Shown: one piece after another, positions 8,043 through 8,566 of the stretch | How positions within the stretch are numbered: the stretch's first letter is position 1 | Layout of the letters: each line of letters starts with the position of its first letter | Sequence record: OR845264.1 | Reading direction: 5' to 3' (one strand) | Source of the DNA: Escherichia phage ECO95 1-6-1 | DNA length: 12,743 nucleotides | Translations under genes and position numbers: made by a program | The notes under the pieces: model-generated | The model's database searches: none | What the model saw: only the letters and a program-made list of their open reading frames with translations | What the model was told of the DNA's origin: nothing

Positions 8043-8304
8043 TTAGACTTTCCTTTTTACCACTGAGATAGGCGTTATATACTTTAAGAGTGCCATAATA
8101 AATTCGGTCATTTTCATCTAAAGACTCGCGGTCAAGTTCATCGAGCTCCTTTTTATCCATGACTATAACATCATTACAGTAAAGAAACCCAAGTTTTTCG
8201 TGACCAAACTCAAATTTATTACAGTACACAATATTAGCGTGATGATTTCCGTGCAGTTTAATCTCTTTTATGCCGGAATCACCGATATTCATACAATAAA
8301 TCAT
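7975..8304 (-). CDS. Hypothetical 109-aa protein (the track's 127-aa version starts at TTG and includes the hairpin)
   Basis: ATG at 8304 preceded by TAAGGAAAATT, the same 14-nt initiation region as rIIB. The 3' end overlaps the denB start by 68 nt. Confidence 0.5.
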   Translation of the reverse strand: MIYCMNIGDSGIKEIKLHGNHHANIVYCNKFEFGHEKLGFLYCNDVIVMDKKELDELDRESLDENDRIYYGTLKVYNAYLSGKKESLNAENESGFTETISDSDIYPIEQ

Positions 8305-8320
8305 AATTTTCCTTAAAACA

Positions 8321-8338
8321 AAAGGGCCGAAGCCCTTT
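8321..8338 (-). promoter_or_regulatory. C(UUCG)G tetraloop hairpin between the 64-aa and 109-aa ORFs
   Basis: - strand RNA AAAGGGC-UUCG-GCCCUUU (7-bp stem), 3 nt after the upstream TAA and 16 nt before the next RBS. Confidence 0.5.
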
Positions 8339-8341
8339 ATT

Positions 8342-8536
8342 TTACTTGAATTGTTCAATTCTTTTCTCTAAACAGTCAGCATAAGATTTCATTGAGATAA
8401 ACTGCGAAAGTAACAGTTCTTGCTCAACTGCGCTAACTGTTAGAAACTTTGCGCTTTCTAAAAATTTACTCAGTGCATTAATTTTGAGCATTAATTGATC
8501 GTATTCTTCTTTTACTCGTGCTTGATAACCTAACAT
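8342..8536 (-). CDS. Hypothetical 64-aa helical protein
   Basis: ATG preceded by TAAGGAAAATT. Sequence MLGYQARVKEEYDQLMLKINALSKFLESAKF... Bracketed on both sides by near-identical UUCG hairpins. Confidence 0.55.
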   Translation of the reverse strand: MLGYQARVKEEYDQLMLKINALSKFLESAKFLTVSAVEQELLLSQFISMKSYADCLEKRIEQFK

Positions 8537-8550
8537 AATTTTCCTTAGTT

Positions 8551-8566
8551 AAGGGCCGAAGCCCTT
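8551..8566 (-). promoter_or_regulatory. C(UUCG)G tetraloop hairpin immediately after the rIIB stop codon
   Basis: - strand RNA AAGGGC-UUCG-GCCCUU (6-bp stem) overlapping the rIIB UAA. Followed by CUAAGGAAAAUU AUG. Confidence 0.5.

Follow-up and report, generated by a model that had tools for sequence, protein, structure and literature searches.

Related systems of T4-type phages

It has been reported that T4 mRNA contains extra-stable hairpins with a C(UUCG)G tetraloop (Tuerk et al. 1988, cited after PMC4371310). RegA operators have been published for rIIB, AAAAUUAUGUAC, and gene 44, AAAUUAUGAUU, and are unstructured, A/U-rich sites with a 5′ A-tract (PMC3014915). In T4-type phages, promoter-early stem-loops (PeSLs) have been described as regulatory cassettes (Arbiol 2010, Comeau 2014). 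rIIB is listed among the middle-promoter genes (PMC9697503), and the MotA-box consensus with its spacing of 12 ± 1 bp is given in PMC2988021. When the rIIB–denB interval examined here is compared with these systems, it seems fairly probable that its hairpins and start sites are explained by standard T4-type punctuation of rII mRNA, in which one hairpin would act as a terminator or attenuator, the other as a barrier between cistrons, and the start regions as RegA sites.

Organization of the rIIB–denB interval

The window is a stretch of 12,743 nt from Escherichia phage ECO95 1-6-1 (OR845264.1), a Tequatrovirus, in which rIIA, rIIB, denB.1, an ORF of the DUF7418 family and denB follow one another on the minus strand, and all elements described below lie on this strand, that is, in mRNA sense. 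rIIB (8565..9503, minus strand) encodes 312 aa with 100% amino-acid identity to RB33 rIIB; denB.1 (8342..8536, minus strand) encodes 64 aa matching Pfam PF21825 (crAss001_48-related), and a literature search for ‘denB.1’ returned one incidental mention. The next ORF (7975..8304, minus strand; 109 aa, Pfam DUF7418/phrog_2237) overlaps with its 3′ end the annotated start of denB by 68 nt, and denB itself (7485..8042, minus strand) encodes endonuclease IV of 185 aa. An Rfam covariance-model scan of positions 7400-9800 gave no match up to E = 1.

Upstream, a middle-promoter candidate of the MotA-box type, ATAATGCTTCA-N11-TAAAAT, was found by pattern matching at 9633..9660 (minus strand) within the 3′ part of rIIA; judging from this match, it is likely the start of the rIIB transcription unit, and we infer that it is the published rIIB middle promoter. 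The last codons of rIIA also contain a weak hairpin, AGGCC-CUUGC-GGCCU (9517..9531, minus strand), whose 3′ arm ends with T 9517, the nucleotide with which the stop codon of rIIA (9515-9517) begins; its predicted energy is −8.0 kcal/mol, it has no UUCG tetraloop, and its z of 0.15 over 66 nt makes it insignificant in its sequence context.

A repeated start region and RegA-type operators

The 14-mer TAAGGAAAATTATG occurs in three exact copies (0 mismatches) on the minus strand, which form the initiation regions of rIIB (9501..9514, with the Shine-Dalgarno sequence AAGGA and the ATG at 9501-9503), denB.1 (8534..8547) and the 109-aa ORF (8302..8315). Identical initiation regions at the three starts had been noted originally, and all three copies are confirmed; the rIIB coordinates given then (9504-9517) are 3 nt off the true position. 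Shuffled sequences yielded 0.38 matches to the 14-mer even when 2 mismatches were permitted, against the three exact copies observed, although the appropriate null for such repeats is given by the T4 start-site consensus and not by random sequence.

A different reading is that the repeats reflect generic T4 consensus alone, every early gene having a similar Shine-Dalgarno sequence with a similar spacer and a UUCG hairpin standing at many junctions, with no shared control specific to this locus. In line with it, GAGGAAAUUAUGAUU is common to rIIA and gene 44, the hairpin core GGGCUUCGGCCC is present at six T4 sites, and the third 14-mer copy is unconserved among relatives. However, the complete T4 genome contains the exact 14-mer at rIIB and denB.1 only, its nearest functional neighbor being the mrh start with one position different, and the start-site repeat is thus specific to the rIIB–denB locus; AAAUUAUG is found at only about eight real T4 gene starts, and four of these follow one another here, at rIIA, rIIB, denB.1 and the remnant of DUF7418; and the denB.1 copy is conserved in 13/14 Tequatrovirus loci. 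A purely generic origin appears rather unlikely with this distribution, and the identity of the start regions seems instead to reflect a shared local constraint. The third copy, at the DUF7418 start, is exact in 2/14 Tequatrovirus loci (the studied phage and L005), while most close relatives show TAAGGAAAAATTATG, TAAGAGAAATTATG or TAAGAGGAAATTATG there; judging from these loci, it is a lineage-specific variant, and because of this variability exact identity of the third start region is not needed.

The comparison with RegA operators points to what the constraint may be. The rIIB copy equals the T4 rIIB operator AAAAUUAUGUAC exactly, the DUF7418 copy together with the next codon includes an exact match to AAAUUAUGAUU, the operator of gene 44, and the denB.1 copy, AAAAUUAUGUUA, agrees with the rIIB operator at 10/12 positions. 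GGAAAAUUAUG is present in 3/3 copies and is unpaired or weakly paired in the minimum-free-energy folds. Like the RegA operators of rIIB, gene 44 and dexA, the three start regions are A/U-rich and unstructured, have a 5′ A-tract and overlap the AUG, and a UAA stands just upstream of each, as discussed for RB69 RegA; regA itself is present in all T4 relatives examined and lies outside the window. Since the 14-mer contains the rIIB and gene 44 operator cores, shared repression by RegA is plausible, and shared translational control of the three ORFs may reasonably be inferred. The 14-nt start region combines a strong Shine-Dalgarno sequence with an unstructured A/U-rich spacer that coincides with the RegA operator, and because of this coincidence RegA probably represses rIIB and denB.1 jointly and, in this lineage, the DUF7418 ORF with them. 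In contrast to the published operators, the start region of DUF7418 is not constant among close relatives, and denB.1 and DUF7418 are candidate targets of RegA control.

Hairpins A and B and their T4 class

Hairpin A (8550..8567, minus strand) has the sequence UAAGGGC-UUCG-GCCCUUA and 7 bp, including the rIIB stop codon (8565-8567), which forms the outer 3 nt of its 5′ arm; without the stop codon it spans 8551-8566. No U-run follows it, the next bases being AAC UAAGG. Hairpin B, which together with its U-run occupies 8312..8338 (minus strand), has the sequence AAAGGGC-UUCG-GCCCUUU (8321-8338) followed by UUUUGUUUU and looks like an intrinsic terminator. Two near-identical UUCG hairpins, AAGGGC-TTCG-GCCCTT at 8551-8566 and 8321-8338, had been noted and are indeed present on the minus strand. 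Their core GGGCTTCGGCCC occurs in two copies, at 8553-8564 and 8324-8335, compared with 0.09 expected. The nearest-neighbor stabilities are predicted at −8.8 kcal/mol for A and −9.7 kcal/mol for B, and with the flanking A/U tracts the stem of B extends to −13.6 kcal/mol (z = −2.7). The gap between hairpin and 14-mer is 3 nt (AAC) at A and 5 nt (TGTTT) at B.

Both hairpins are members of the genome-wide T4 C(UUCG)G class. In re-sequenced T4, 26 C(UUCG)G hairpins have a stem of 4 bp or more, 24 of them lying on the locally transcribed strand when compared with the annotation and mostly intergenic; about half have a U-run and about half do not, corresponding to the B and A types found here. As in that class, the UUCG loop of A and B is closed by C-G on a short GC-rich stem (GGGC-UUCG-GCCC), and both lie between cistrons on the mRNA-sense strand, A at the rIIB stop/denB.1 start and B at the denB.1 stop/DUF7418 start. 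They carry the 12-nt core that six of the T4 sites share, all on transcribed strands and the gene 45/44 junction among them, and no structural difference from the T4 hairpins was seen, the stability here being a predicted one. The near-identity of A and B appears to reflect this hairpin sequence preferred throughout the genome. The imperfect hairpins of the T4 reference sequence were considered as natural variants and rejected; the hairpins are perfect in the re-sequenced T4 ‘wild’, and the reference therefore probably contains 1-nt errors.

Possible termination or processing and the likely rIIB transcription unit

A terminator-type search covering the three hairpins gave hairpin B as the sole minus-strand match and none for hairpin A. 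The stem of B already ends in TTT and has the tail TGTTTTAAGG, whereas the tail of A, AACTAAGG, contains no U-tract. The orthologue of hairpin B in phage Kha5h is annotated as ‘putative terminator determined with ARNold’, and the hairpin behind rIIB in Mosigvirus G2285 is likewise annotated as a terminator. The earlier proposal of a hairpin-defined 3′ end can thus be kept for hairpin B, with its U-run and the terminator annotations in relatives, and is dropped for hairpin A, which has no U-run; the more general view of these elements as RNA-level signals is supported. Like known intrinsic terminators, hairpin B has a GC-rich stem directly before UUUUGUUUU and an A-tract upstream; unlike them, it stands only 5 nt ahead of the Shine-Dalgarno region of the following same-strand cistron and no promoter comes after it, and for this reason it would have to be leaky. 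Promoter-pattern scans revealed no recognizable promoter downstream of hairpin B for DUF7418, denB and the genes beyond, and therefore termination would be partial, or B would serve mainly to stabilize RNA. The literature searched contained no usable 3′-end or terminator mapping for T4-like phages and no report of transcript ends, termination, decay or RegA binding at this locus.

A further possibility is that the hairpins are not terminators and mark endonucleolytic sites of RNase E or RegB, at which polycistronic RNA is cut into separately stable cistrons. AU-rich single-stranded RNA beside stable hairpins is the usual context of RNase E cleavage, and stretches of this kind adjoin the stable hairpins here; in addition, hairpin A, having no U-run, needs a role other than termination. 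T4 mRNAs are known to be extensively processed (PMC3014915). On the other hand, the three start regions, UAAGGAAAAUUAUG, are without GGAG, the RegB target (a specificity taken from a T4 annotation note), the invariant U-run behind hairpin B fits termination and not processing, and the literature searched contained no report of cleavage at this locus. Processing sites thus seem an unlikely explanation of the hairpins.

In the preferred reading, standard punctuation of rII mRNA, termination, stabilization and RegA binding are read from sequences, predicted folds, conservation and distribution. Hairpin B with its U-run would be a Rho-independent terminator or attenuator that closes the unit formed by the rIIB middle promoter, rIIB and denB.1, the 3′ end of the terminated transcript would be capped by the extra-stable C(UUCG)G hairpin, and the DUF7418 ORF and denB would be supplied by read-through of hairpin B. 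Hairpin A, without a U-run, would not terminate and is most likely an intercistronic barrier to folding or decay; a ribosome stopping at the rIIB stop codon, which lies in its stem, would melt it.

Conservation within and beyond Tequatrovirus

Conservation was assessed in 14 Tequatrovirus loci, and the comparison was based on GenBank phage records (a collection of about 500 relatives) because IMG/VR gave 8 rIIB loci. The core of hairpin B and the U-run UUUUGUUUU are invariant in 14/14 loci despite a variable spacer between stop codon and hairpin and a variable downstream start region. Hairpin A is degenerate in 4/14 loci; for instance, the closing pair is lost in slur04, the stem has a mismatch in ECML-134, and two IMG/VR contigs have a UUUG loop, and since some relatives have a disrupted or weaker form of the hairpin its function would be dispensable or weak. 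The idea of three tandem units overstated the symmetry, in that the hairpin at the end of rIIA is of another kind, the third 14-mer is a minority variant, and A and B themselves differ in the U-run (absent and present, respectively) and in conservation.

Outside the genus, one UUCG hairpin with a U-run is found in the rIIB–denB interval of each of Mosig-, Jiaoda-, Winkler-, Moon- and Biquartavirus and of an unclassified Klebsiella phage, and a covarying UUCG hairpin is present in the interval in seven other genera sampled. In a set of 10 junctions, pairing holds for 95.7% of the stem positions, 6/7 pairs have changed on both sides and 0/500 shuffles were as good. These figures show that a hairpin has persisted at this place and are biased as a test of covariation, the set having been picked for hairpin-forming sequences.

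The gene order rIIB–denB.1–DUF7418–denB is common to Tequatro-, Winkler-, Moon- and Gaprivervirus and the unclassified Klebsiella phage. denB.1 occurs in 496 phage records (at least 80% identity) against 498 for rIIB and is accordingly fixed in the genus. The DUF7418 ORF is polymorphic, with recurrent internal deletions at several breakpoints, while a start site and hairpin B are kept, the latter in every deletion allele examined. denB.1 is absent from Mosigvirus and Jiaodavirus, where a single hairpin is directly followed by the DUF7418 gene, whereas in Tequatro- and Winklervirus denB.1 is flanked by two hairpins. VR7 carries the same ORFs with no flanking hairpin at either junction, and a hairpin is likewise missing from the rIIB/denB.1 junction of KM16 and from the denB.1/DUF7418 junction of the Klebsiella phage. 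The composite pattern of hairpin plus start site was found at this locus only, both in the T4 genome and in IMG/VR (four Tequatrovirus contigs).

Modules as possible recombination substrates

The likeness of the two modules extends beyond hairpin and start site. Over their final four codons and the stop codon, rIIB and denB.1 match at 14/16 nt, so that collinearity reaches 5′ of the hairpins, and a gapped alignment of modules A and B scores 57 compared with −5 ± 6.6 for shuffles. It can be asked whether recombination uses the modules as substrates, in the manner of PeSLs but without a promoter; they would then have mediated insertion, duplication or loss of small ORFs and would owe their likeness to duplication or gene conversion. 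The three collinear similarity blocks (14/16, 16/16 and 14/15 nt) and the alignment score far above shuffles speak for this, as do the restriction of the exact 14-mer in T4 to the rIIB–denB locus, the single hairpin without denB.1 in Mosig- and Jiaodavirus, an arrangement that recombination between two modules would be expected to leave, and the PeSL shuffling documented in T4-type phages, the neighboring ndd.4/.5 region included. Like PeSLs, the modules consist of a repeated stem-loop, a Shine-Dalgarno sequence and an ATG before small non-essential ORFs in a plastic genome region.

Unlike PeSLs, however, they have no early, sigma-70-like promoter: no minus-strand promoter-like site overlaps either hairpin, and promoter-like matches overall equal the shuffle expectation. 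A promoter between hairpins and start sites was likewise rejected, there being no room and no match above that expectation. With no promoter element and only 3-5 nt between hairpin and Shine-Dalgarno sequence, the modules fall outside the PeSL definition. Furthermore, the ORFs are not ORFans, several genera keeping their order in synteny, and within the genus no indel polymorphism is seen at module boundaries: denB.1 is fixed, and the DUF7418 losses are internal, with differing breakpoints and the module always retained, the evidence between genera being ambiguous. Variants of module A (spacer AAC or ATCACAT, loop changes) are not mirrored in module B over the 14 loci; concerted evolution of A and B was rejected on this ground, and there is no sign of ongoing homogenization. 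The occurrence of the composite pattern at a single locus in IMG/VR, the genome-wide preference for the hairpin core and the ORFs without hairpins in other genera also count against recombination, which is quite improbable as the source of the modules. The original suggestion of cassette-like acquisition loses support in the same way, given an old gene order that spans genera, a fixed denB.1 and loss of DUF7418 by internal deletion rather than by excision at module boundaries, and in VR7, KM16 and the Klebsiella phage the ORFs occur without flanking hairpins, as that suggestion itself had named as evidence against it; recently acquired gene cassettes are not supported.

A more specific form, in which promoter-less recombinogenic cassettes have neighboring junctions homogenized by gene conversion with occasional deletion or insertion of small ORFs such as denB.1, is more doubtful still. 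If true, it would explain the single hairpin without denB.1 in Mosig- and Jiaodavirus and the two hairpins flanking denB.1 in Tequatro- and Winklervirus, and identical RegA-type operators would put newly captured ORFs under rII-type control at once.

Significance

The hairpins and start sites of this interval appear to be ordinary, standard T4 mRNA punctuation, and the current understanding of T4 gene expression is unchanged, the value of the analysis being mainly for annotation. It defines a likely transcription unit of middle promoter, rIIB, denB.1 and terminator-like hairpin and adds denB.1 and the DUF7418 ORF to the candidates for the RegA regulon. The analysis also shows T4 to be a natural deletion mutant for DUF7418, a gene kept by most relatives, and a UUCG hairpin to be maintained in the rIIB–denB interval across the other genera sampled while the stem sequence has turned over.

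Gene content and the repeated start region

This region of the window shares more than 96% identity with many Tequatrovirus (T4-like) genomes, and its rIIB protein has the same sequence as RB33 rIIB (100% identity). On the minus strand lie rIIA (9515-11692), rIIB (8565-9503), a 64-aa ORF that is called denB.1 in T4 (8342-8536; Pfam PF21825, crAss001_48-related), a 109-aa ORF of the DUF7418 family (7975-8304; Pfam DUF7418/phrog_2237) and denB (7485-8042). denB.1 has weak tblastn matches (36% identity) in crAss-like Bacteroides phages (H144, H145). The label "endonuclease", frequent on denB.1 or the DUF7418 ORF in GenBank records, looks like a name transfer from the adjoining denB.

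Three exact copies of the 14-mer TAAGGAAAATTATG are found at 9501-9514, 8534-8547 and 8302-8315, with the start codon of rIIB, denB.1 and the DUF7418 ORF, respectively, at the 3′ end of each; shuffling predicts 0.38 matches with up to two mismatches. The start-region repeat and the hairpin pair (next section) described in the original prediction are confirmed, the sole correction being a 3-nt shift in its rIIB coordinates. In re-sequenced T4 (KJ477684), assembled and then scanned, the exact 14-mer is present only at rIIB, where the copy is divided between the record ends, and at denB.1; the start of a DUF7418 remnant has a variant with two mismatches, and, apart from these, only TGAGGAAAATTATG at the start of mrh (gene assigned from annotation) is a functional near-match. 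The shorter AAATTATG occurs at about eight real T4 gene starts, four of which belong to the consecutive cistrons rIIA, rIIB, denB.1 and the DUF7418 remnant, and another to gene 44. The distribution of both sequences in T4 makes the start-site repeat specific to the rII-denB locus.

Gene 44 is a classic RegA target. The rIIA initiation region of the window (11693-11715, minus), GAGGAAAUUAUGAUUAUC, is almost identical to GAGGAAAUUAUGAUUACU of gene 44, so that AAAUUAUG is present in each of the four successive cistrons of the locus. TTATGAAAATTATG (7050-7063, minus), two mismatches away from the 14-mer, precedes a short in-frame ORF of the variable ndd.x-like region and lacks a Shine-Dalgarno core; the resemblance is probably due to chance.

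UUCG hairpins of the locus

Two UUCG hairpins on the minus strand share the core GGGCTTCGGCCC (8553-8564 and 8324-8335, the two copies in the window): hairpin A, at the rIIB/denB.1 junction (8551-8566; full stem AAGGGC/GCCCTT), and hairpin B, at the denB.1/DUF7418 junction (8321-8338; full stem AAAGGGC/GCCCTTT). The outer part of the hairpin A stem is the rIIB stop codon (8565-8567). Folding predicts -8.8 kcal/mol for hairpin A and -9.7 kcal/mol for hairpin B, the latter reaching -13.6 kcal/mol (z = -2.7) when its flanking A- and U-tracts are included. The two modules, each a hairpin plus its start region, align with a gapped score of 57 against -5 ± 6.6 in shuffles, and collinearity continues upstream, where the ends of rIIB (TEQFK*) and denB.1 (IEQFK*) are identical at 14 of 16 nt over the last four codons and stop. 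Before the rIIB start stands a structure of another kind: AGGCC-CUUGC-GGCCU (9517-9531, in the last rIIA codons; -8.0 kcal/mol) has no significance in its sequence context on folding. This weak structure is paralleled in four other genera by GC-rich hairpins of unrelated sequence just 5′ of the rIIB start, none of them significant individually; three are inside the rIIA 3′ end (L015, 2445-2470; L016, 2443-2463; L018, 2464-2479), and that of Krischvirus W115 (166-183) is intergenic, downstream of a promoter-like TATAAT.

It has been reported that the C(UUCG)G hairpin class was first discovered in 1988, in T4 mRNA (PMC4371310). T4 (KJ477684) has 26 such hairpins with a stem of at least 4 bp among 71 CTTCGG occurrences; by annotation, 24 of them are on the locally transcribed strand, mostly intergenic, and about half are followed by a U-run while half are not. 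The 12-nt core of hairpins A and B is present at six T4 sites, including the 45/44 junction immediately 5′ of the gene 44 start. Unlike the start-site repeat, the hairpin is not locus-specific. A third C(UUCG)G hairpin of the window, GGCGUC-UUCG-GACGUC (5659-5674, minus), lies immediately 5′ of GAGGAAAAUAUG, the start of a 51-aa ac homologue; it is the orthologue of the T4 hairpin at 165541 and forms a hairpin-plus-start-site junction without a U-run. In the T4 reference NC_000866, each UUCG hairpin of the locus has a 1-nt deletion (3225-3245 and 3450-3465; AAGGCTTCGGCCCTT and AAAGGGCTTCGGCCTTTT), while both are perfect in T4 "wild" KJ477684 (340-365 and 570-590); the deletions are most likely old gel-compression errors.

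Variation within Tequatrovirus and loss of the DUF7418 ORF

Fourteen distinct Tequatrovirus loci were compared (the window, T4 wild, five IMG/VR contigs, RB33, KK4, Kha5h, T4_ev240, PM133, slur04 and ECML-134). Neither hairpin B nor its UUUUGUUUU varies among the 14, in contrast to their surroundings, namely the spacer from the denB.1 stop and the start region downstream. A perfect hairpin A is found in 10 of the 14; two have a UUUG loop, slur04 has lost the closing pair (GGGCTTCGTCCC) and ECML-134 carries a mismatch in the stem. Of the start regions, that of denB.1 is the exact 14-mer in 13 loci, and that of DUF7418 only in the window and one other locus (L005); other full-length alleles have TAAGGAAAAATTATG (slur04, ECML-134, L004) or TAAGAGGAAATTATG (RB33), and the deletion alleles have TAAGAGAAATTATG or TAAGGGAAACTATG. 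The variant DUF7418 start region was confirmed with a 61-nt query, the best GenBank matches of which contain a 1-nt insertion.

The original prediction also suggested cassette-like acquisition of the two small ORFs. At ≥80% identity, tblastn matched rIIB to 498 phage records and denB.1 to 496. The DUF7418 ORF matched 609 records, only 352 with ≥80% coverage; the remaining ~257 retain only residues 68-109 to 84-109, the part overlapping denB, and their several different breakpoints indicate that the gene was lost repeatedly. The compared sequences contain at least three deletion alleles, in which the denB.1 stop is 63, 82-83 or 86 nt from the denB ATG, against 297-299 nt with the full-length ORF, and every one keeps hairpin B, the U-run and a start site. 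The ORF is intact in the window. T4 itself is a deletion allele, with an unannotated 37-codon remnant ORF (KJ477684, about 270-330) produced by an in-frame internal deletion. Both the near-equal record counts of denB.1 and rIIB and the retention of hairpin B in the deletions speak against recent acquisition, and these comparisons of sequence do not support a cassette origin for the denB.1 and DUF7418 ORFs.

In the window the DUF7418 ORF runs at its 3′ end 68 nt into the annotated denB (7975-8042), and the two genes overlap in every sampled genus with both annotated (L013, L015, L016, L017). DUF7418 has a conserved C-terminal motif, SDIYP(V/I)E, and the annotated denB start of Mosigvirus, MKVKIADTARYS, comes directly after the stop codon of DUF7418; both the position of the true denB start and a possible translational coupling of DUF7418 with denB are worth examining.

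Hairpin position across genera

In Winklervirus X20, rIIB is followed by GGAGAC-UUCG-GUCUCC with U5, denB.1, GGCC-UUCG-GGCC, DUF7418 and denB. Klebsiella phage CP-p-KP-21072 has a hairpin with U-run after rIIB and none after denB.1. Moonvirus KM16 and three IMG/VR contigs, with a denB.1 start that is overlapped by the rIIB stop codon, carry AAAGCCC-UUCG-GGGCUUU with a U-run after denB.1. Mosigvirus G2285 and Jiaodavirus LAL003, from which denB.1 is absent, have one hairpin with U-run after rIIB and DUF7418 next. Single hairpins after rIIB are also found in Biquartavirus Riv-10 (UUCG loop, U-run) and Lazarusvirus DP45 (UUAC loop, weak U-run). Gaprivervirus VR7 has a gene for an HNH endonuclease (953-1444) between rIIB and denB.1, the hairpin's place elsewhere, and its rIIB-denB interval contains no UUCG hairpin and no intergenic space. 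The same ORFs are thus found without flanking hairpins, contrary to the proposed bracketing; each interval typically has one UUCG hairpin with a U-run, whose position is movable, and some genomes have a second without a U-run. Among ten loop-aligned hairpins, a set chosen for hairpin-forming sequences, 95.7% of stem positions are paired and both sides have changed in six of seven pairs, a level reached by 0 of 500 shuffles.

The known promoter-early stem-loop cassettes (PeSLs) combine a stem-loop, an early promoter, a Shine-Dalgarno sequence and an ATG, and mediate ORFan indels, including in the nearby ndd.4/.5 region. Unlike PeSLs, the window modules have no promoter; within the genus no indels map to their boundaries, the two copies do not co-vary, and a search of IMG/VR and T4 found none beyond this locus. 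Recombination at the level of the module, hinted at only by the lack of denB.1 from some genera and by the terminal codons that rIIB and denB.1 share, is very unlikely.

Probable transcription unit and putative control by RegA

A MotA-box-type promoter match, ATAATGCTTCA-N11-TAAAAT (9633-9660, minus), is located in the rIIA 3′ part, ~120 nt 5′ of the rIIB start; the consensus and spacing are those of PMC2988021, and rIIB has been reported to be a middle-promoter gene (PMC9697503). On the simplest reading, one unit would run from the promoter through rIIB and denB.1 to hairpin B and its U-run, and hairpin B would serve as a leaky intrinsic terminator; a search downstream of hairpin B found no promoter, and DUF7418 and denB directly follow. 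The corresponding hairpins are annotated as terminators in Kha5h (ARNold) and G2285. Without a U-run, hairpin A cannot be a terminator; among the 14 loci it is under less constraint than hairpin B, and it is probably a folding or decay barrier, which a ribosome terminating on rIIB would have to melt.

The interval 7400-9800 has no match in Rfam up to E = 1, and RegB action at the start regions is excluded because they contain no GGAG. The rIIB start region exactly matches the published rIIB RegA operator AAAAUUAUGUAC, the gene 44 operator AAAUUAUGAUU is contained in the DUF7418 start copy, and the denB.1 start region matches the rIIB operator at 10 of 12 positions (PMC3014915). The start regions also have the properties stated for RegA operators, being A/U-rich and predicted to be unstructured, with a 5′ A-tract and UAA nearby, and every T4 relative examined has regA. 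All elements of the locus belong to well-known T4 classes, and T4 itself has orthologues. The proposal of a shared post-transcriptional control is partly supported, by the terminator-like 3′ end at hairpin B and the RegA-type operator matches; given these matches, the fitting properties and the occurrence of regA, it is plausible that RegA represses the cistrons of the rII locus together.
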